Source: an uncultured Spirochaetota bacterium (GTDB lineage: Bacteria; Spirochaetota; Spirochaetia; SZUA-6; CAVTHK01). From it: a stretch of 64,000 nucleotides of DNA. Made by a program: the position numbers and the translations under genes. Within the stretch, counting starts at the first letter, position 1; each line of letters begins with the position of its first letter. Under the pieces are notes generated by a model. The model was not told where the DNA came from, did no database searches, and worked only from the letters and a program-made list of their open reading frames with translations. Shown here piece by piece: positions 31,384-52,795 of the stretch. The stretch spans positions 1 to 64,000 of the forward strand of contig CAVTHK010000003.1 in assembly GCA_963734495.1 (NCBI GenBank). The letters are read 5' to 3'.

Positions 31384-33762
31384 TTGATATATTTGACTGC
31401 TACTTTTGTTCAAGACTTGAAAAAAGCCGGAGTATATAAGCAACAATTTTCCAGGAGATCATATTTCTGGCTTTGCATTATAGTAACTATTGTATCGTGC
31501 AATCCGACAAAATATGTACCGGCAGATGAATCGCTTTTGAATGAGAATCATATCATTTTGAACAATGAAGGAATACAGAAAAGTGCCCTGAAACCATATA
31601 TTAAGCAGCAGCCGAACAAGAGGATCTTTGGCACACGGTTTTACCTTGGGCTGTATAATCTTTCGAAAATTGATAAGGAGAACTGGTTTAATAAATGGCT
31701 GAGAAATATAGGGGAGGAGCCGGTAATATTCGATCCTACTGCAACTGTCAAGACAAAGGGTCAGATAAAGTCATATGTTGCCTCGAAAGGTTATTTCGAC
31801 GGCCAGGTTTCTGAGACTATTACGACAATAAGGCAGAAGACTGACGTATTTTACAATATCGAACTGCTGCCTCCTTACACCATAAGACATATATACAATG
31901 AGATAGCTGACAGCAACATTAAGAAGCTTTATCTTTTTGATTCAATGAATTGTGTTATTGAAAGAGGGAAGCCATATGATGTTGACAAGCTGCAGGCTGA
32001 GCGGACAAGATTTGAGAGATTTGTAAAGGATCATGGATTCTACGGATTCTCAGGTGATCACATTTATTTCAGAGTTGACAGTTCTATAGGTCACAGGCAG
32101 GTTGATATAACATACGGGATAAGAAAATTCACAAAAATTGATGAATCAAGCAAGGTCAGCCTTATCCAGCACCCAATTTACAAGGTGAAGAATATTTATA
32201 TATATCCCGATTTTATCCCCAAGAACGCTCTTGAAGGAGGTGATTCTTATCTGAAAAGCCTCGATACTACCTTCTACAAAGGTTATTATTTTGTGAGCTC
32301 CGGGAAAAAAGAGAGGGTTAAATATGACCTGATACTTCAATCCATGTATCTGAAGCCCGGAGCCACCTATAATTTTACAAATACAGAACAATCACAATCC
32401 CACCTTCTTACATTAAAAGTTTACAGGCTTGTAAATATTTATTATAATGAATCATCTCCACCCGGGCCACCACAGGACATTCCGCTCGATCTTAACTGCA
32501 ATGTTCAGCTGACCCCGCTGAGCCAGCAGTCATACAAGATTGAACTGGAAGGAACAAATTCTGCCGGCAACATAGGAGGTGCGGTAAACCTGATTTATCA
32601 GCATAAGAATCTGTTTCATGGCGCCCAGCTTTTCAGCATGAAGCTTAAAGGCGCACTCGAAGCCCTGGCACAACAAAACACCGAGCTGAAAAAATCAAAA
32701 GAATTCGGACTTGAGACAAGTCTCAGGTTTCCTGAATTTCTGCTCCCTTTTATTGAGAAGGAAAAGTTCATTAAAAAGTATAATCCCTCAACAATCATTC
32801 TTGCTGCCTATAACTATCAGGATCTTCCCTTCTACACAAGGCTTATGTCTAACGCTACATTTGGGTACGACTGGAAAGCGGGTCCCTATCAGGAACATAT
32901 AGTCAGTCCTCTTCAGTTCAACATTGTCAAGATGCTGTCAATTGATCCGGCGTACGAGGCTCAGATTGAATCATCTTCATACCTTGCATATAGCTATAAG
33001 GATGTGATGATACTCGGCGGCAAGTATTCATATATCTATAATAACCAAAAGATAAACAAATCGAAGGATTACTGGTTTCTCAGGGTGAATGCCGAATCAT
33101 CGGGTAATTTGCTTGGATTGGTAAAGAGAGTATCAGGAGCGGCAAAGAATGAGGATGGTACTTATGATTTTCTCAAACAGCCATTTGCTCAGTACATACG
33201 AACGGATCTTGATCTAAGGTACAATTACAAATTCAATTCTGCTGCATCAGCAGTATACAGAGGCTTTTTCGGAATAGGCATTCCATATGGCAATTCAAAG
33301 GCACTACCCTTTGAAAAACAATATTTCAGCGGAGGTTCAAATGGAATACGGGCATGGCAGGTTAGAACCCTGGGTCCGGGATCATTTCTCCAGAGTGATA
33401 CTGTCACGTTCATCAACCAGACAGCTGATATCAAACTGGAGGCCAACGCGGAGTACAGGTTCAAACTTTTCTGGATCCTTGAAGGAGCAGTCTTCGTCGA
33501 TGCTGGCAATATCTGGACCTATAAGGATGATCCCTCAAGACCTGGTGCACAGTTTAAATTAAACAAGTTCTATAAGGATATAGCTGTCGGAACAGGGGCA
33601 GGTCTGCGGTTTGACTTCAATTTTGTGCTGGGAAGAGTTGATCTCGGCATGAAGCTGCGCGATCCGTCTATTCAGAGCGGCTCCAGGTGGATTCCTGTTA
33701 ACGGGGATATTAGCTTCAGAAGAGACTTTGCCATCGTAATAGGAATAGGTTATCCATTCTGA
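31384..33762 (+). CDS. Omp85/BamA-TamA family outer membrane protein (TamL-like lipoprotein)
   Basis: Lipobox VSC-NPTKYVP, POTRA-like region, HKNLFHGA, YFSGGSNGIRAW, FVDAGNIW, C-terminal GIGYPF; true start probably TTG ~31417, after TACTTTTG at 31401. Confidence 0.9.
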   Translation: MIYLTATFVQDLKKAGVYKQQFSRRSYFWLCIIVTIVSCNPTKYVPADESLLNENHIILNNEGIQKSALKPYIKQQPNKRIFGTRFYLGLYNLSKIDKENWFNKWLRNIGEEPVIFDPTATVKTKGQIKSYVASKGYFDGQVSETITTIRQKTDVFYNIELLPPYTIRHIYNEIADSNIKKLYLFDSMNCVIERGKPYDVDKLQAERTRFERFVKDHGFYGFSGDHIYFRVDSSIGHRQVDITYGIRKFTKIDESSKVSLIQHPIYKVKNIYIYPDFIPKNALEGGDSYLKSLDTTFYKGYYFVSSGKKERVKYDLILQSMYLKPGATYNFTNTEQSQSHLLTLKVYRLVNIYYNESSPPGPPQDIPLDLNCNVQLTPLSQQSYKIELEGTNSAGNIGGAVNLIYQHKNLFHGAQLFSMKLKGALEALAQQNTELKKSKEFGLETSLRFPEFLLPFIEKEKFIKKYNPSTIILAAYNYQDLPFYTRLMSNATFGYDWKAGPYQEHIVSPLQFNIVKMLSIDPAYEAQIESSSYLAYSYKDVMILGGKYSYIYNNQKINKSKDYWFLRVNAESSGNLLGLVKRVSGAAKNEDGTYDFLKQPFAQYIRTDLDLRYNYKFNSAASAVYRGFFGIGIPYGNSKALPFEKQYFSGGSNGIRAWQVRTLGPGSFLQSDTVTFINQTADIKLEANAEYRFKLFWILEGAVFVDAGNIWTYKDDPSRPGAQFKLNKFYKDIAVGTGAGLRFDFNFVLGRVDLGMKLRDPSIQSGSRWIPVNGDISFRRDFAIVIGIGYPF

Positions 33763-33827
33763 TCTGATACTTCCTGATCAAAATATTTTTTATTCCATGC
33801 AGCTTTTTGTCCCTGTAATTTTTTAAA

Positions 33828-34620
33828 TTGCAGTCAGTCGGACTGCATTCTGTGAGAAAACTATTGAACATTCAGCCGGTCAATGACTGGTTTGGGTACA
33901 CGCGTCGTGAGAGGAGATCAACTTTTATTCTGCTGATCATAATCCTTTTAGTAATCCTTGTAAGGTATGCGGTTCCTGAAAAAAACATTGATATTGTGAA
34001 TGCAGTTCCCGGCTATTCTGACAGCTTATGGTTTGCAAAAATTGACTGGGAAGAACAGGCTCATGAAAATATGCCCCTGGGTTTTGATCCCGGTACAGCC
34101 TCATATGATACCCTGTTAAAGATTGGGCCCGTTTCAAGGGAAGTCAAAATCCCTGTCAGCTACAGGAGCGGGGGAGGAAAACTCAGTAAGTATGATTCCG
34201 GGACTTCCCGGCAGTTAAAGATCCGGCTCAATATAAACACCTGTGATACCTCAGCGCTGATTGCTCTTCCGGGGATTGGTCCGGTTCTATCAGTCAGGAT
34301 TATAAAGTACAGGAATCTGCTGGGCGGATTTGCAAGGGTGGAACAGCTTATGGAAGTTTACGGTTTGCCGGAAGAGACTTATCAAATGATCAGGGAAAGA
34401 GTATTTGCTGACAGTTCCGAAGTCAGGAAGACCAGGATTAATTCATCTGATTATAAGGGATTAAGCCGCATCCCTTATATTGAAAAATATGAAGTATCGG
34501 CTATTCTCAAGTACAGGGAGTTGGCTGGCAGGATAAGACAGCATGGATGATCTGAAGGAGAATAAGATTCTTACTCCGGAAAAGGGGAAGAAGATCGGGG
34601 CATATATTGATTTTCAATAA
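33828..34620 (+). CDS. Helix-hairpin-helix (ComEA-like) DNA-binding protein; C-terminal frameshift
   Basis: FGYTRRERR, N-terminal TM, LNINTCD..LIALPGIGPVLS.RIIKYR.LLGGF. Confidence 0.8.
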
Positions 34621-34779
34621 ACGGAGTCACCCCATGACCCTCTCTGCTGAGGACACGAACTCACCCCCTGCCCGATAGCCGTCAACCTAAGGTATCTTAA
34701 AAAAGCTTTGTAGGAGGATCAGTAAACGCAAACGGATCTAAAACTGAAGCTTTATTTATAACTCTCCCCTCCTTTTGAA

Positions 34780-35728
34780 AGTAATTTCCTAGTTTATGGC
34801 AAAATGATTATATTATGGGAAAAAAAATGACATGGAACTAATCAAAATTACTGAGAAGCTTAACACTAAAGGAAAGTGTATGGCTTATCTTGAGAAACAA
34901 AGATGGTCTGATTTGCCCATTTGTCCCTATTGTAATTCAACGAGAAGCTCGAGGAAGACACAGGAGTTCAGGCATACTTGCCATAACTGTAAGAGATCTT
35001 ATAGTGTACTGGTAGGAACAATTTTTGAATCTACCAAGCTTCCAATTACAAAATGGTTTTTTGCCATATGTCTTATATTAAATGCAAAAAAAGGAATATC
35101 ATCTCTTCAACTAGCTAGAGATTTGGATGTTAATAAAAATACTGCCTGGTTTTTGCAGAAGCGAATCCGTAAAGCAATGAAGGATGACAATTCAATCTTA
35201 AGTGGAATAGTAGAGATTGATGAGACCTATGTTGGCGGAAGTATTTCTAATAAGCACTATTTAACAAAGCTTGAATCTGGCAAATATTATAAGTCTGGAA
35301 TGGAGCATATGGTCCCCGTATTGGGGATGATTCAACGAAAAGGTAAAATAATACTAAAAGTACTAGAGAAGGCATCTGGTAAAGAAATAAAACCTTATAT
35401 AAAATCAAAGATCGCATCAGGCAGCACAATAATCACTGACGGGTTTGGTGGATATTACGGGTTAAATGATCATTTTGAAAATCACATAATATTAAATCAC
35501 AAACAAAGCAAAAGAAGTATTAATCAATATAATACGAGTACTCTTGAAGGATTTTGGACCTTAGTCAAAAGATCGTTATTCGGTCAATATCATAAGATTT
35601 CAAAAGTCCATTTACAAGAATATTTAAATGAGCTGGCATTTAAATACAATTATAGAAAAATAAATATGTTTAAATTATTGCTTAACAATCTATTAGAACC
35701 AAAGTATGCCTTTAGCTAGGAAATTACT
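34780..35728 (+). mobile_element. IS1595-family insertion sequence, complete (949 bp)
   Basis: TIRs AGTAATTTCCTAGTTTATGGCA / TGCCTTTAGCTAGGAAATTACT; 8-bp TSD CTTTTGAA at 34772-34779 and 35729-35736. Confidence 0.93.
34832..35719 (+). CDS. IS1595 (ISXO2-like) DDE transposase
   Basis: Zn ribbon CPYC/CHNC, GTIFEST.LP..KWF, KKGISSLQLAR HTH, VEIDETYVGG, ITDG, LEGFW, YLNELAFKYN. Confidence 0.93.
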   Translation: MELIKITEKLNTKGKCMAYLEKQRWSDLPICPYCNSTRSSRKTQEFRHTCHNCKRSYSVLVGTIFESTKLPITKWFFAICLILNAKKGISSLQLARDLDVNKNTAWFLQKRIRKAMKDDNSILSGIVEIDETYVGGSISNKHYLTKLESGKYYKSGMEHMVPVLGMIQRKGKIILKVLEKASGKEIKPYIKSKIASGSTIITDGFGGYYGLNDHFENHIILNHKQSKRSINQYNTSTLEGFWTLVKRSLFGQYHKISKVHLQEYLNELAFKYNYRKINMFKLLLNNLLEPKYAFS

Positions 35729-35811
35729 CTTTTGAAGGAGGGGTGGCCGGAGTACTATGCTATTAAAAGAGTTGCAATGCACTGTACCGGCCGGGGTGGT
35801 TGATTTGATAT

Positions 35812-35999
35812 TCATATTGATGCTTTTTTATGCTTTTCATTATTGATAACTTTCCTTATCTCATTTTTTAAGTATTGAGGGTCTTTAAACACAAATCTGT
35901 TTTCAAACCTTAATACTGTGAATCCTAAGTAGACCTGTTCCTGAGAGATGATCTGAAGGATTTAAGGCCTTTTATGTTGAAGAGATTTTTGTCTTTCAT
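35812..35999 (-). pseudogene. Internally deleted DUF559 endonuclease gene
   Basis: Manual translation: MKDKNLFNIKGLKSFRSSLRNRST joined out of frame to LGFTVLRFENRFVFKDPQYLKNEIRKVINNEKHKKASI*; these match the N- and C-termini of DUF559 proteins, and the central core is missing. Confidence 0.7.
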
Positions 36000-36316
36000 A
36001 GATATGAAGGTAAGAAAAAGAAATAAATCAACCACCCCGGCCGGGAAATAAACTTTGTAAACATAAGATAATCAATTGTCCCGGCGCCTTCCCTGCAGCC
36101 TGGCTCCTCCCTAAAATTGCCCACTGGGCAATTTCTTAACGGTCAGCCCCCTTCAAAAGGAGGGGAAACTTTTTCTAATCTACCCGTTTTAATAATACCC
36201 TTAAGTTGACGGCTATGCCCCCTGCCCCCTCTCTGCTGGCGCAAAGAGGGGGTAAGAACGCTGTGAAAATAGTTCTGGTTAGCCAAACTGGCTGATGTAA
36301 CAATTATAAATTAACA

Positions 36317-36712
36317 TTGATGTCATTAAGAACCTATAATCGGTTAAAGTCAATAAGGTCCCTTGCGAGAGGATTAAGGAAAGAGGCAACTGAATCTGAA
36401 AAACTTTTATGGAAGAGGCTCAGAAACAGACGACTTGCATGCTATAAATTTCTACGTCAGCACCCTGTGATATATAAATCAGATTACACTGGAATGCAAT
36501 TCTTTATTGCAGATTTTTATTGCCACGCTAAAAGAACAGTAATTGAGATAGATGGTCAGGTTCATCTGGAACAGCAGGAATATGATCAGTTCCGGGACGA
36601 AGTTATGGCCGAAAAGGGACTGCATATTTTAAGAATTAAAAATGAGGGGTTATCAGATATGGAAAAGGTCCTTGAAAAAATCGAATCATTTTTGGATTCC
36701 GTCTCTTCATAA
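36317..36712 (+). CDS. DUF559 (Vsr/very-short-patch-repair-like PD-(D/E)XK) endonuclease
   Basis: ARGLRKEATESEKLLWKRLRNRRL, KFLRQHP, FIADFYC, VIEIDGQVH, YDQFRD, LHILRIKN. Confidence 0.88.
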   Translation: MMSLRTYNRLKSIRSLARGLRKEATESEKLLWKRLRNRRLACYKFLRQHPVIYKSDYTGMQFFIADFYCHAKRTVIEIDGQVHLEQQEYDQFRDEVMAEKGLHILRIKNEGLSDMEKVLEKIESFLDSVSS

Positions 36713-37001
36713 CAATATATTAATCAGCCATGTATCCCCCTCTTTGCGTCAGCAGAGAGGGGGATTAAGGGGGTGAGTTCGTTGGACTTAAAGGGATTAA
36801 GGGGGTGAGTCCGTTGATCCCGAAGCCTTATTTGGCTGATCCGTTAAAAATTGTAAATTATTTGGAAACAGTCTTATTATTTCGTAATTTTAATACACAG
36901 AAAACCAAAAAGGGATAAACAGAATTTAATAATCTATTATAAAAAAGAGCATCATGATTAATTTTAATCCATAAAAGTTTTGAAAAGAATTTTTCTATTT
37001 C

Positions 37002-37009
37002 TAACTTTG
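37002..37009 (+). promoter_or_regulatory. Bacteroidota -7 promoter box for rpsU
   Basis: TAACTTTG 30 nt upstream of the rpsU ATG, with TTTG upstream at ~36979. Confidence 0.65.
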
Positions 37010-37038
37010 CGCCTCGTTTAAAAACAGAATTTTAGATT

Positions 37039-37230
37039 ATGATTATTGTACCATTAAAAGAAGGCGAGAATATTGAACGGGCATTAAAGAAGTTCAAGAG
37101 AAAGTTTGAAAAGACTGGAGTAATTCGTGAACTAAGGTCACGTCAGGCTTTTATTAAGCCTTCAGTACGCCGGAGAGAAGAGATCAAGAAGGCTATGTAC
37201 GTTCAGAAGCTGCAGGAAACCGAAGAGTAA
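37039..37230 (+). CDS. rpsU: 30S ribosomal protein S21
   Basis: MIIVPLKEGENIERALKKFKRKFEKTGVIRELRSRQAFIKPSV. Confidence 0.96.
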   Translation: MIIVPLKEGENIERALKKFKRKFEKTGVIRELRSRQAFIKPSVRRREEIKKAMYVQKLQETEE

Positions 37231-37284
37231 TTCGGTTGTCCGTGCTCTCATTTATTATTAACAAACAGATACGGGGGTTCCTTC

Positions 37285-38175
37285 ATGAGTTATAAGGAAT
37301 CGTTCTTACAATATCTGCAAATCGAAAAGCGGTATTCACCTCATACTGTCAGGTCTTATTTGAATGATCTGGATCAGTTTTTTTTGTTTTTAACCTCGCA
37401 GGGACAGCCTGCATGATCCGTTTCTGTGACTTCCCATGATATCAGGGCATGGGTGGTCAGCATGCTCGACGGCAACTATTCTGCGGTAAGCGTTCACAGG
37501 AAGATCTCCTGTCTGAGGGTTTTCTACCGTTATCTGAGAAAAGAGGGTGTCATGAAGAGTGATCCGCTTGAAAAGGTGTCCCTGCCAAAAAGGAAAAAGA
37601 GTCTTCCGGTGTTTGTTGAGGAGGGTGCTCTCGATGAATTGCTTGACAATTACAGTTTTGGTGATGATTTTGCAGGCATAAGGAACAGGACAATAATTGA
37701 GATGCTTTATCTGACAGGGATGAGGAGGGCAGAGCTGATTGGTCTCAGGAACAGCGGATGTTGACCTGGCTGAAGGTTCCGTAAAGGTGACCGGAAAAAG
37801 GAACAAGCAGCGGATCATACCTGTTGTGAAGCCGTTTATGGAAAGGCTTAAGGAATATATTAGCCCTGAGGGATAAGGAGATACGCATCAGCGTCTGAAG
37901 GCTGGTTTTTTGTCACCGATCGAGGGAACAAGTTGTATGATAAATATGTTTATAATGTAGTTAACAGGTATCTCGCGATGGTAACTACGATAGAGAAAAA
38001 GAGCCCTCATATACTAAGGCACACTTTTGCCACACACATGCTCAACAGGGGCGCTGATCTGAATTCGATAAAGGAGTTGCTGGGTCATGCAAATCTTTCT
38101 GCGACACAGATTTATACTCATAATACATTTGAGAAACTCAAGAAAATATATAAACAGGCTCATCCGAGAGCTTAA
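37285..38175 (+). CDS. xerC: Tyrosine recombinase XerC-like; frameshifted
   Basis: [58 protein letters not shown]; conserved rpsU-xerC-hpf order. Confidence 0.85.
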
Positions 38176-43493: not shown

Positions 43494-50379
<6,886 letters not shown>

Positions 50380-52795
50380 TGTCGATCGCGTGGAGTTTCC
50401 TGAAGGAGTCGAGGATCTGGAACATCAGGCTTTCGAAGTCGGCGCCGGCCTCGGCGCACTGTCGGCGCAGCGCGACCCATCGGTCGTCCTTGACCCGCTC
50501 TTCCCACTTCTCGTAGGAGATCCGCACGAGACCGCACGCCTCCAGCCCCGGCAGGTTGACACGCCAGGCGTTACCCAGGTCGGAGAGGAGGAGGTATTTC
50601 AGGAGGGTCTTCATGATCTCCTGGAGCGATCTGACGCGGGAATCGAACACCTCTCCGGACTCGGGGATCACCGCATAGTCCGCCAACTTCAGCCCGAGAC
50701 GATCGAAGACTTCGGACTCGACCATGGAGAAGGGGATGGGCCCCTTCTCCCGCAACGCCTTCACGAGGGCGGCTCGGAGTCGGACGGTTGAGATGAAGTC
50801 GTTGAAATGTCCCGACTGCAGGGAGGAATCCTGGCGGTTGTCGGAGAAGCTGAGGAGCTTGGTGTCCTTGTCGGCGAAGCCGAGCCCTTTCATGGCGTCC
50901 AGAATGGCAAGGGAGATGACGGTGGTGGTGGTGGACCTCCCCTCGAGCCCGATGCGGGAGAGTTTGGCGAACTCGCTGGTCTGATGGTGGTAGAGGTCGC
51001 CACTCGTGGGGTCATAGATGAACTTCACGGGGAGGTACCACCCCTTGAGGCCACTGCCCGTGTCAGTGGCGAATCCGTCCCGATACGCGCCGTCGACGAA
51101 GTAGGTAATCTCGGAAGGGAACTTGCCCGAGGTACTCCTTTTTCAGCGTGAGAACACCACCGACCTCGCGCGTGTACTCCGCCGGCAGATTGGCGAGGTC
51201 CTCGTCGGGCCTGCCATGCGTGCTCGTCGCAGAGAAGGTACCCGTACTCGCGACTGTCTTTCTCCTCCTCGGGGAGGCTGTCGTCGCTGAAATCCCGCGC
51301 CTCGAGTCTGCCCTCCGCAAGGTTCTTCTTGACGCAGAGGAACGGCTTTCCCGAGGAGCGGTTGAAAACCACGGGGTACAAAGGATATGTCGTTTCCGCG
51401 ATTGTTCGGGACGGGACCGCCGTCAAAGTCGATCAGCCTCTCGCTTCCCCGGTGGAGAGACACCGAGAGAGAGGCGGTCTGCGCGATGAACTGGTGGAGC
51501 TTGAAGGGCAGGACGAATGCAGGCCGGGAGGTCGGGTCGGTGTGTTCCCTCGCAATCCTCTCGTTCACCGCGGCAATCCGAGTGAACAGGGATTCGAGCG
51601 ACGCGCGACATGCGGTCTCATTCCGGCCCGACGCCTCCCGAAGGAGCAAGCACATCTCGCTCGCGGTCCTGGCAGGTCCGCGCTGATAGCCGCTACCATC
51701 CGGCGTCAGGGCCACCACACGCTCGACCCACCGAAAGAGGGGGGCGGCGCACAGCTCCTCCGCGCTTGCCGCGGCCGTCGGTGTGTCGATAGCCGCCGCG
51801 AGCTCCTCGGACCCGGGGTTCGGATGGCGGACCGAGATGGCCGTCAGCGATTCCTCGATCACCTGAGCCGGCGTAAAGCGGTCACCGAAGAAGGTTGTTG
51901 CCACTTCGGCGACACGGGTCTTGCGATCCGCCGAGGTCGCGCCGCCGGTCATCGTGGCCGATGTTCCGATGCAGACGATCGGATGCGCGCACTCCGCCTT
52001 GATCCGGCGGATGAGCAGCGCGACGTCCGCGCCCTGCCGACCTCGGAAGGTGTGAAGCTCGTCGAATGCGATGAACTTCAGATTCTTGAAGATAGCTTCC
52101 CTGATATCGGAGTCTCTCTGCCGAGTCAGGATCAGCTCGAGCATCATGTAGTTGGTGAGGAGGACATGGGGAGGCGCGTTCCGCATGGTGTCCCGCTTGT
52201 CCTCCTCCTCCTGCCCGGTGTACTGGCCGAATGAGAAGGGGAAATCCCGATGCGTACTCGCCTTATAGCGCTCCGCGTACTTTTCGATCTCACCCGTCTG
52301 CGAATTGATGAGCGCATTCATGGGATAGCAGACAAGACCGACGACGCCCGGGCCGGGGTGTCGCAGTATCTCGTTGAAGATCGTGCCGAAGAACGTGAGC
52401 GACTTGCCCGAGCCCGTGCCCGAGGTCACGACGAAACCTTTGCCGGCAGCCCCCAGGCGAAGCGCTTCCTCCTGGTGTCGGTGCAACGTAAACCCCGAGA
52501 AGACAGATGCCATTGCGGGCTCAAGAACCCCCTCGGTCACCAGGGACTCGATGCGTGCGCCGGGTTCATACGACGGATTGAACTGGATCAAGGGCTCGGG
52601 CCACATCGTCTTGAGCCTGCCCTCATCCTGCAAGGCAGCTTCGATCTGAGGGTCGTCGATGTCGATGAAGCTACGGGAGAACGACTGGTACCGGTCCATC
52701 ACGTCCCGGTGGAACCGGAAGACGTCGGTTGTTGGAGTCACGGCCGGATTCTCCTTTGGCGCCACATCAGCTTCGTTCACTGCCCGTCCGGGCAT
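50380..52795 (-). CDS. Large DEAD/DEAH-box SF2 helicase of the type found in defence islands (N-terminal ~800 aa; truncated at the junction, frameshifted)
   Basis: [86 protein letters not shown]. Confidence 0.85.

Follow-up and report, generated by a model that had tools for sequence, protein, structure and literature searches.

The 64,000 nucleotides at the start of contig C3 in genome G000 (hereafter the window) include a comEA-like gene and rpsU, and the spacer between these two contains a small gene of the DUF559 nuclease family surrounded by hairpins, inverted repeats, an insertion sequence and the remains of a second gene of the same family. How did these pieces come to lie inside one another, and does the nuclease have a part in their spread? 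The interval reads as a three-layer nest of small mobile DNA. Comparison shows the order of the three insertions: an outer DUF559 cassette, which has a still older shell around it, came first, an inner element then entered it with a 10-bp duplication, and a member of the IS1595 family entered last with an 8-bp duplication; moreover, a 203-nt deletion in the inner gene followed the entry of the inner element. On balance, the cassettes are probably selfish, and their spread would depend on the action of the DUF559 nuclease on folded end modules.

The outer DUF559 cassette

The outer layer is an intact DUF559 gene between two hairpin-bearing end modules in inverted orientation, with terminal repeats beyond them. 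Its parts are the following:

34620-34654, unstranded: decayed copy of the left terminus, with the H' C-run and the 5' half of a hairpin; pairs with 36793-36816
34655-34673, minus strand: left terminus, made of ACGAACTCACCCCC, the loop TG and the first Cs of the hairpin
36225-36252, minus strand: left hairpin; the minus strand reads Y-R (pyrimidine, then purine) and then a split G-run; fold z -2.4
36317-36712, plus strand: intact DUF559 gene, 131 aa; likely start ATG 36320; PF04480 match, E 6.6e-27
36736-36782, plus strand: right module, made of the hairpin 36736-36763, the loop ATTAA, and the mirror G-run with the terminus GGGGGTGAGTTCGT at 36769-36782
36793-36816, unstranded: second copy of the right terminus, GGG ATTAA GGGGGTGAGTCCGTTG; a direct repeat of 24 nt at 96%

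Read in opposite orientations, the two hairpins (36225-36252 and 36736-36763) agree at 27 of 28 positions, and ACGAACTCACCCCC(T) at 34655-34669 forms a perfect inverted repeat with 36768-36782 over 15 of 15 nt. The right module folds with a z score of -5.2, which none of 200 shuffles equalled, and is matched by the triplex-motif finder with 10 triads and 1 mismatch. The inverted-flank score of the gene reaches 25.5, against 10.5 at the 95th percentile of shuffled flanks. Therefore, from the flank score together with the folding, chance does not explain the outer repeats.

The inner element and the insertion sequence within it

Between the C-run with the left terminus and the hairpin of the outer left module lies a composite element, which in turn carries an insertion sequence:

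34674-36217, minus strand: composite inner element of 1544 bp, with two internal triplex-type modules, a deleted DUF559 gene and a nested IS1595
34674-34692, plus strand: terminal inverted repeat at the B end, distal to the gene; its pattern is over-represented in relatives
34766-34779, plus strand: first part of the B-side hairpin, namely its 5' arm and loop (CCCCTCC TTTTGAA), interrupted by IS1595
34780-35728, plus strand: insertion sequence of the IS1595 family; open reading frame (ORF) 34832-35719, 295 aa; 22-nt inverted repeats
35729-35743, plus strand: 3' arm GGAGGGG of the B-side hairpin with the second copy of the IS1595 target repeat, as read in the sequence
about 35745-35792, plus strand: stem-loop in loop 2 of the inner module (the small palindrome), a conserved family feature
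35793-35803, plus strand: third-strand G-run GGGGTGG(TTGA), mirror of GGAGGGG; inverted repeat with 36028-36038
35812-36010, minus strand: inner DUF559 remnant, about 24 N-terminal and about 38 C-terminal codons, with the deletion at 35925/35927
36147-36165, plus strand: A-side hairpin, degenerate copy CCCCCTTCAAAAGGAGGGG, from inverted repeats and the family alignment
36199-36217, plus strand: terminal inverted repeat, gene-proximal A end, from the inverted-repeat search
36218-36227, unstranded: right copy of the 10-bp target duplication CCCCCTGCCC, from the direct-repeat search

A perfect 10-bp direct repeat, CCCCCTGCCC (34664-34673 and 36218-36227), flanks the element, whose inverted ends of 18-19 nt (34674-34692 and 36199-36217) agree at 17 of 18 positions (94%) over an 18-nt core. 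The 13-bp terminal inverted repeats read (C)ATAGCCGTCAAC and the end sequence is CATAGCCGTCAAC, with the ends refined to CATAGCC...GGCTATG. The element therefore has the traits of a transposon, namely terminal inverted repeats, a target duplication of constant length and multiple copies. Inside it, a perfect 20-nt inverted repeat (35787-35806 and 36025-36044) frames the DUF559 remnant, which, judged against the intact 129-aa protein of locus L031, has lost 203 nt; one metagenome contig has 203 extra letters at 35925/35927. Intact copies of the same composite are present in two genomes (L031 and L049 in G001, L032 and L051 in G003), with a DUF559 gene of 127-129 aa and with the terminal repeats and both modules of the window element.

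The insertion sequence belongs to the IS1595 family, since its ORF has a DDE domain (PF12762, DDE_Tnp_IS1595, E 2.1e-37) and an N-terminal zinc ribbon (PF12760, E 1e-6), its ends are inverted, and an 8-bp direct repeat, CTTTTGAA (34772-34779 and 35729-35736), flanks it, 8 bp being the usual duplication length of the family. It splits the inner-element hairpin CCCCTCC TTTTGAA GGAGGGG in its loop, and once the IS1595 and one repeat copy are removed, the window row aligns without gaps to other members of the inner-element family. Soil and bog metagenome contigs match this IS1595 without differences over 156-366 nt. The stem-loop in loop 2 folds weakly in the window (z -1.6), is aligned with counterparts in other members of the inner-element family, and has another sequence with its pairing kept in the related cassettes L099, L101, L103 and L108. 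Because this small palindrome is a constant part of the family, and because the terminal-repeat element and the DUF559 cassette inside it recur together, the two form one composite element family.

The search for copies covered five genomes (incomplete, G001-G005), in which the terminal-repeat pattern, with at most 1 mismatch, occurs 19, 11, 8, 12 and 1 times, respectively, against 0-3 times for a reversed-pattern control. Paired copies number 17 with the window included, measure 300-1735 bp and come from four related Bacteroidales genomes besides the window; all but two (15/17) are internal-deletion derivatives or have had their middle replaced by other small elements. When the 10 nt next to each end are compared, 7 of the 17 copies agree at 8 or more of the 10 positions, and one more copy matches at 18 of 18, compared with 3.3% of 272 mismatched left/right pairs that served as a control. 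Copies are most numerous and most similar (89-94%) in G001, which has an intact cognate gene. No transposase gene bounded by the inner-element repeats was found among 51 motif matches in the five genomes, and full-length members encode DUF559 only, with no DDE, serine, tyrosine or HUH transposase found in them. The long copy L091 contains a nested IS4-family element with its own ends, and outer terminal repeats of the inner-element type were found around none of the other DUF559 loci of the family, L092-L127.

A pre-insertion allele in an independent contig

An independent metagenome contig, L122, has the same gene order as the window, with a BamA-like protein 94% identical over 472 codons, and holds the outer cassette at the same site, with a DUF559 protein 78% identical. 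It has nothing matching window positions 34671-36217, and its left module, ACGAACTCACCCCC-AA-hairpin, is unbroken. L122 is a natural pre-insertion allele without the inner layers, and because its left module is uninterrupted, the inner element must have entered after the window and L122 split. Between the two, the ratio of nonsynonymous to synonymous divergence (dN/dS) of DUF559 is 0.14, with a dS of 0.88, and dS is 0.85-1.19 in neighbouring genes and 0.17 in rpsU. Thus, given a dS like that of its neighbours and a low dN/dS, the outer cassette has been vertically inherited, with its gene under purifying selection.

The termini of the outer cassette occur as symmetric copies that decay outwards like the layers of an onion, with two on each side in the window (34620-34669 and 36768-36816), three on each side in L122 (2320-2400 and 2945-3080) and three to four in L118, there to the right; the impression is one of cassettes renewed again and again within earlier ones. 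Moreover, a G/A variant in the hairpin loop is swapped between the two loci, with G on the left and A on the right in the window and A on the left and G on the right in L122 (2402-2429 and 2917-2944), which hints at an exchange between the two cassette ends.

A first-pass annotation of this stretch, made from the letters alone, had described the intact DUF559 gene between 28-nt hairpins matching at 27 of 28 inverted positions, partly duplicated outer ends, a left end split by a 1544-bp element with a 10-bp direct repeat, and, within that element, a second DUF559 cassette with its own inverted repeats and a deleted gene; all of these repeats are present where it had placed them. The nesting also holds, and its count of four layers is reduced to three, since the cassette and the terminal-repeat element recur as one. 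It had further taken both the IS1595 and the small palindrome for insertions, which is right for the IS1595 and not for the palindrome, conserved as it is in other family members. Its statement that removing each layer in silico restores the one beneath is borne out for the 1544-bp element by the natural allele of L122.

End modules with the layout of an intrastrand triplex

Each outer hairpin adjoins a G-run that mirrors its purine arm, 3' on one side and 5' on the other. In the right module, CCCCCTCT...AGAGGGGG is followed by ATTAA and then by GGGGGTGA, with G facing G and A or T facing A, and the triplex reading is TCCCCCTCTT / GAGAGGGGGA / AGGGGGTGAG with 1 mismatch. In class II intrastrand triplexes, a pyrimidine arm and a purine arm are joined by a 3' run that pairs with the purine arm by antiparallel reverse Hoogsteen contacts (G.G, A.A and T.A), as described in PMC4666352. 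By sequence compatibility, the end modules have this class II layout, of the BoxC/PIT type. The mirror run lies outward of the hairpin in the outer cassette (E-type) and inward in the inner element and in the other cassettes of the spacer (B-type).

The motif was surveyed at the DUF559 loci of one Bacteroidales family plus the window, that is, at 41 loci, from which five with flanks shorter than 120 nt were dropped to leave 36. In 17.9 kb of DUF559 flanks, 62 matches to the class II motif were found (3.46 per kb), against 9 in 197 kb (0.046 per kb) elsewhere in the same loci, an enrichment of about 75-fold beside DUF559 genes; at least one motif is present in 26 of the 36 loci, 18 of them with motifs in both flanks. 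When hairpins are located first and the third strand is left unconditioned, a perfect mirror run follows 32 of 166 hairpins (19%), compared with 2.3% when a purine arm of equal length is taken from another hairpin and 0.24% in shuffled sequence.

The modules also have a polarity. At stem pair 9, the strand bearing the G-run has a T.G wobble in all 13 of 13 modules of the window's subfamily, from five genomes or contigs, where the opposite strand would carry a C.A mismatch, and two stem pairs from the wobble (second from the loop) a compensatory change from GC to AT has occurred on both sides in four modules. The polar wobble and the compensatory change therefore argue for folding of one strand in particular. 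The modules of the window and those of L122 are 27/28 identical, and the adjoining spacers cannot be aligned by eye.

Other interpretations of the hairpins were considered. An Rfam search of window positions 33500-37500, at E up to 1, gave no match and left the hairpins unexplained by known RNA families. Sites resembling promoters (11 against 8.9 in shuffles) or terminators (4 against 2.4) show no enrichment, and the terminator reading was rejected because the outer hairpins have no T tails. Readings as G-quadruplex or i-motif were dropped, each module having only two G-runs or C-runs per strand.

Gain, loss and inheritance of the cassettes

Among 19 loci examined with comEA and rpsU, 14 have no tblastn match to DUF559 and five contain in the spacer one or two DUF559 genes of another clade (B-type, 31-39% identity). 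L007 and L008 have a single hairpin at the site, and because they are sisters of the filled loci L006 and L018 on the BamA tree, these solo hairpins are loss scars; the spacer of L020 holds a gene-less E-type miniature. Across the Bacteroidales family, PF04480 (E <=1e-10) is found in 31 of 61 genomes.

End type follows protein descent. The DUF559 tree was built from 43 core sequences, leaving out L103 and L119 (internal stops), L014 and L030 (tandem duplicates) and L126 and L127 (high GC), and on it the five types of end module require 9 changes, against 22.4 when shuffled, with none of 200 shuffles as low, some of this clustering coming from kinship alone. Clade A, that of the inner element, occurs in seven unrelated contexts, clade B in two and the window's clade in two, and clades C and D are only found in synteny; clade-A cassettes without the terminal-repeat framework occupy five further unrelated contexts. 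The end motifs also occur apart from the gene, E-type motifs being present 14, 10, 1, 9 and 0 times in G001-G005, with 0-1 in the control. G002 combines 10 of these motifs with no DUF559 match at all, and several of the nine G002 regions examined are gene-less E-type units with termini CATGAACTCACCCCC. L128, L135 and L137-L139 are gene-less pairs, and L131 has collapsed to a single palindrome. No target duplication of the outer, E-type cassette was seen in L128, the sole complete miniature with both flanks. A scan of metagenomes with a single DUF559 protein as query gave six loci.

Altogether, these comparisons support the gain, loss and inheritance of DUF559 genes and their flanking modules as units, as the first-pass annotation had supposed when it had them travel as units, and as is reflected in an end type that follows clade and in the seven contexts of clade A. 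The comparison of relatives across the comEA-rpsU interval that it had proposed does yield empty (14/19), scarred (L007 and L008) and pre-insertion (L122) alleles, and the covariation of hairpin type with protein phylogeny that it had suggested looking for is present on the 43-sequence tree. Its picture of units defined by hairpins, in the manner of REP/RAYT, needs amending: paired modules do define them, these are not plain hairpins as a mirror G-run is added, and the inner element is transposon-like.

Local duplications were also seen. Tandem units of about 100 bp with GGGGGGATGTCTTGA, the B-type mirror run and terminus, occur in L009 (13900-14100) and L014 (13330-15500), and in L014 a whole cassette is duplicated along with the 3' end of comEA. 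In the 200 nt upstream of L099, a clade-A hairpin is duplicated together with some 50 nt from the 3' end of the gene that precedes the cassette, a long local duplication at the cassette border. The idea that the flanking hairpins of B-type cassettes are a target duplication was rejected, as their loops are inverted (TTTGAA against TTCAAA) and not direct.

End modules as landing sites

The inner element enters hairpin loops or, as happened in the window, the loop that separates C-run from hairpin in a module of another cassette. Among 56 distinct outer flanks, 32 fit the pattern of a C/G run, 1-7 nt and another C/G run at the junction, compared with 1.6% of 9600 random positions, and 41 terminate in GG or CC. 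Clear cases of landing in modules or loops are the window, L044, L050, L051, L057, L062, L091 and L135. Elements of other kinds hit the same places. Besides the IS1595 of the window, an IS4-type miniature inverted-repeat transposable element (MITE) is found in the hairpin loop of the E-type units L128, L129, L132, L133 and L136, and in that of the inner-element family members L050, L056, L064, L072, L086 and L091. Thus, the landing-pad property is not specific to related elements; of the claim that hairpins are preferred landing sites for related elements, the preference has been upheld and the relatedness has not, since the IS1595 and the IS4-family MITE use them too.

The IS4-family element and its MITE have ends CTA(A/C)YCTTTATACACA, with a 9-bp duplication in L128, and L091 carries the full IS4-family element with a transposase of 395 aa. 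A family of small palindromic elements with ends AGATTCCTCGCT..GCTCGGAATGACA occurs in the comEA-rpsU spacers of L002 (13455-13530) and L021 (13400-13600) and in the middle of the inner-element copies L048, L050, L056, L062, L083 and L086. Short repeats CACGGAGT / ACTCAGTG, inverted and tandem, fill the nearest cassette-free spacers (L002, L003 and L019) and are also found downstream in L028, and in L087.

The DUF559 protein

The outer DUF559 protein matches PF04480 with 94 bits, above the cut-off of 20.6, and the L031 protein with 113 bits. In 35 sequences, D66, E77 and D79 are invariant and H83 is conserved in at least 90%; by analogy, D66/E77/D79 (D ... E-x-D) may be the catalytic acids. 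The AlphaFold2 (AF2) model, with a predicted local distance difference test score (pLDDT) of 88.6, has a restriction-endonuclease-like fold, and among solved structures it comes closest to 3HRL, from a DUF559 protein that is itself uncharacterised (TMt 0.79), and next to 3R3P, the catalytic domain of I-Bth0305I (TM 0.71 on target), with sequence E-values of 7.9e-10 and of 0.034 (weak), respectively. Among curated NCBIfam models, no Vsr match was found, and the one match, to the DUF559 model PRK09767, reached 63 bits where the cut-off is 218. The outer DUF559 gene has comEA-like and rpsU as its neighbours, and no gene for a cytosine methyltransferase adjoins it. A role as a defence system is not supported, since the PADLOC matches were all weak and partial (E 1e-3 to 1e-7) and concerned nuclease domains within larger proteins.

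The only functional study of a DUF559-domain protein that we found concerns Caulobacter VsrA, which provokes the SOS response when the solitary cytosine methylase is missing (PMC12907096). A superfamily survey places VSR, DUF559 and DUF2726 together, with the remark "no HGT observed" for horizontal gene transfer (PMC3424549). Some DUF559 ORFs are mis-annotated as 'leucyl-tRNA synthetase' or 'very-short-patch-repair endonuclease'; among ORFs of 126-129 aa (P0080, P0088, P0099, P0102 and P0107), several are named 'leucyl-tRNA synthetase' by one source.

The contig and its host

The GC content is 40-47% (about 43%) from base 1 to about 50,000 and 66-72% (about 70%) beyond, like the other 17 contigs of G000, and the switch, at about 50000-50500, falls within an ORF (48645-50516) matching domains 2-5 of the RNA polymerase beta-prime subunit. 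The contig is a chimera, in which a segment of about 43% GC has been joined by misassembly to the genome G000 of about 67% GC. A conserved gene such as rpoC is a typical spot for a false join of two organisms. The DUF559 nest sits in the low-GC part, with the junction 13 kb away. Its host is a Bacteroidales bacterium, as the nearest relatives of the BamA-like, comEA-like (HHH_3) and rpsU genes are in Bacteroidales metagenome-assembled genomes; the host had been guessed correctly from the letters. A PF04480 search of G000 found no DUF559 besides the window's own copy, and since the low-GC segment is misjoined to it, G000 is uninformative for a census of DUF559 genes or hairpins.

The comEA-like ORF ends early, at 34550, and its conserved tail runs on in another frame to a TAA at 34618-34620, while the xerD-like gene (37285-38175) is broken into at least four ORFs where L122 has a single ORF of 295 aa. 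These frameshifts are possibly assembly indels or real decay, and the C/G-run lengths in the modules may therefore be one base off. The host was found in no sequencing run. In four metagenome runs (two studies), contigs match the window in the IS1595 and the inner element only and continue into different sequence beyond them, and comEA, the outer DUF559 gene and the unique spacer had no coverage.

Selfish units, passengers or host genes

According to the preferred reading, in which we place moderate confidence, DUF559 serves the spread of selfish cassettes by acting on their folded ends. The nuclease would nick at or near the junction of the folded hairpin with the third strand; in the window's subfamily, the nick site may be the invariant T.G wobble beside the third strand; and the folded modules would be structurally exposed sites that other transposons also hit. 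Several points weigh against this reading. PD-(D/E)XK nucleases hydrolyse DNA, and we know of none that join it. The mobility of the units is read from comparisons between genomes, and the triplex from compatibility of sequence, the folding tools modelling hairpins only; 10 of the 36 surveyed loci have no motif by the finder used, and the T.G wobble is limited to one subfamily. Vertical descent and purifying selection, as found for the outer cassette, would also fit a gene useful to the host. The inner-element family is old, most of its copies being 70-95% alike. Finally, unrelated insertion sequences land in the same hairpin loops, which means that DUF559 is not required to account for the targeting.

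Terminal inverted repeats with a fixed duplication are the classic mark of a DDE transposase (here acting in trans), and the 10-bp duplication around inverted ends leads to a reading in which DUF559 would be a passenger, the terminal-repeat element being a MITE moved in trans by a DDE transposase. The module-gene-module cassettes would then spread via carrier insertion, recombination between repeats and horizontal transfer, with a nuclease that is self-serving (addiction or homing) or useless. Some framework copies contain no DUF559 modules (L059, L069, L073, L076, L081 and L082), and the cassette may therefore be such a passenger; in the same sense, G002 and G004 have 11 and 12 terminal-repeat matches without a DUF559 gene of the inner-element type, G002 having no DUF559 gene and G004 a single one with another type of module, and the IS1595 and the IS4-family MITE show that DDE elements favour these very loops. 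However, the 51 motif matches in five genomes included no transposase bounded by the repeats, copies are most numerous and most alike precisely where an intact cognate gene is present (G001), clade-A cassettes have reached five further unrelated contexts without the framework, and the end modules are conserved far beyond neutral expectation. We regard the passenger role as rather unlikely.

A function for the host, which seems to us distinctly improbable, would make DUF559 a repair nickase directed by structure or mismatch, like Vsr, or a nuclease resolving triplexes or hairpins, with the repeats as its substrates or regulators and the patchy distribution as ordinary gene gain and loss. It would agree with the vertical descent and purifying selection of the outer layer, with the conserved catalytic residues and with the invariant T.G pair in the folded hairpin, T:G being the substrate of Vsr. 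The SOS response caused by Caulobacter VsrA without the cytosine methylase (PMC12907096) and the link of triplex motifs with genome instability (Holder et al., PMC4666352) may be added. On the other side, no Vsr equivalog is matched (only PRK09767, at 63 vs 218 bits) and no cytosine methyltransferase gene adjoins; two DUF559 clades occupy the same spacer in different lineages, with 14 of 19 spacers lacking DUF559; internal-deletion derivatives and gene-less miniatures occur in many places; and without exception the gene is flanked on both sides by its own type of repeat, in inverted orientation. As for an assembly artefact, the contig is indeed chimeric, with a GC switch inside a fragment of rpoC, and neighbouring genes are frameshifted. 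Nevertheless, every layer has inverted repeats of its own and perfect target duplications at its borders, the same outer cassette stands at the same place in the independent contig L122, four other genomes carry the inner element in intact or deleted form, and the junction is 13 kb distant, which makes an artefactual nest highly improbable.

Significance of the nest

DUF559 is among the commonest uncharacterised nuclease families, and for the BoxC/PIT triplex repeats, on record since the 1990s, neither a partner protein nor an origin is known. If DUF559 and triplex repeats form a mobile unit, DNA mobility would gain a new class of enzyme and, in the folded three-strand structure, a DNA end of a new kind, and a source of intergenic instability would be explained. 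A wider generalisation, tentative and more doubtful than the preferred reading, is that DUF559 proteins are the mobility enzymes of widespread, undescribed tiny elements whose triplex-folded ends they nick, with the BoxC/PIT repeats of E. coli and other bacteria as gene-less relics and the modules as general landing pads on which nested 'onions' of mobile DNA accumulate. A selfish DNA of this type, with DUF559 and structured ends, is apparently undescribed: full-text literature yielded no paper tying DUF559 to flanking structured repeats or to mobility, and DUF559 is named there within full texts and not in titles or abstracts. In practice, DUF559 cassettes are easily mis-annotated.

The window contributes an insertion order, a pre-insertion allele, loss scars and the polar T.G wobble. 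It also defines a precise target, the loop between the C/G runs of another cassette's module, and shows the same structures attracting unrelated insertion sequences. The nest is a natural record of arrival, of decay and of the attraction of other mobile DNA.

Comparison with known systems

BoxC/PIT and TM_ECO are class II purine-motif intrastrand-triplex repeats (PMC4666352; Hoyne et al. 2000, cited there), and the modules described here share with BoxC/PIT the succession of pyrimidine arm, loop, purine arm, loop and a G-rich run mirroring the purine arm, as well as an intergenic, multi-copy occurrence linked to rearranged loci. The TM_ECO consensus is CCCTCNCCC N3-6 GGGNGAGGG N3 GGGNGAGGG (Holder et al. 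2015, PMC4666352), which the window arms CCCCCTCT / AGAGGGGG and their 12-nt loop 1 do not fit; therefore, both would be of the same class and not of the same family. Unlike BoxC/PIT, the present repeats have a loop 1 of 10-12 nt and a loop 2 that may hold a whole stem-loop, and they form inverted pairs around a gene. The sections of Holder et al. available to us report no link to mobile elements and do not contain the words endonuclease or ycjD (PMC4666352). The DUF559 gene of Escherichia coli K-12, ycjD, has a TM_ECO copy some 170 nt downstream and none upstream. On the minus strand of the same locus (L121, 5040-5420), a remnant duplicate of the last 50 nt or so of ycjD is followed by a TM_ECO/BoxC copy, and the 3' end of ycjD runs into a short, C/G-rich, hairpin-like sequence.

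Vsr and VsrA belong to the same superfamily clade, and VsrA has a DUF559 domain and damages DNA in vivo (PMC12907096, PMC3424549), whereas the proteins described here have no Vsr-model match and no linked methyltransferase, and flanking repeats are not described for Vsr. The homing endonuclease I-Bth0305I (PDB 3R3P) has a fold of the same family and, like it, DUF559 is a small nuclease gene at a site that is empty in relatives. However, the DUF559 cassettes lie outside introns and inteins, have their own inverted structured repeats and occupy unrelated loci; moreover, homing by recombination makes no target duplications, and one DUF559 family does.

Elements of the IS200/IS605 group have subterminal hairpins and transpose as single strands. 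As in them, the ends of the cassettes would be set by a folded single-strand structure and not by long inverted repeats, and the T.G polarity points to one folding strand, but no TnpA or TnpB gene is present, the ends are mutually inverted and a target duplication accompanies one family. The inner element resembles MITEs and insertion sequences in its 13-bp ends, 10-bp duplication, many internally deleted copies and target preference, and differs from them in that the sole gene of its full-length copies is DUF559. In REP/REPIN-RAYT systems, a small gene, often under selection, is flanked by inverted structured repeats, and gene-less doublets are scattered through the genome. The DUF559 gene likewise lies between inverted repeat copies that also occur as gene-less doublets. 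In contrast, its product is a Vsr-like PD-(D/E)XK nuclease (DUF559 being the only Pfam match) and not a Y1 HUH transposase, its repeats have a third, mirror strand, and one of its families has true terminal inverted repeats and a 10-bp duplication.

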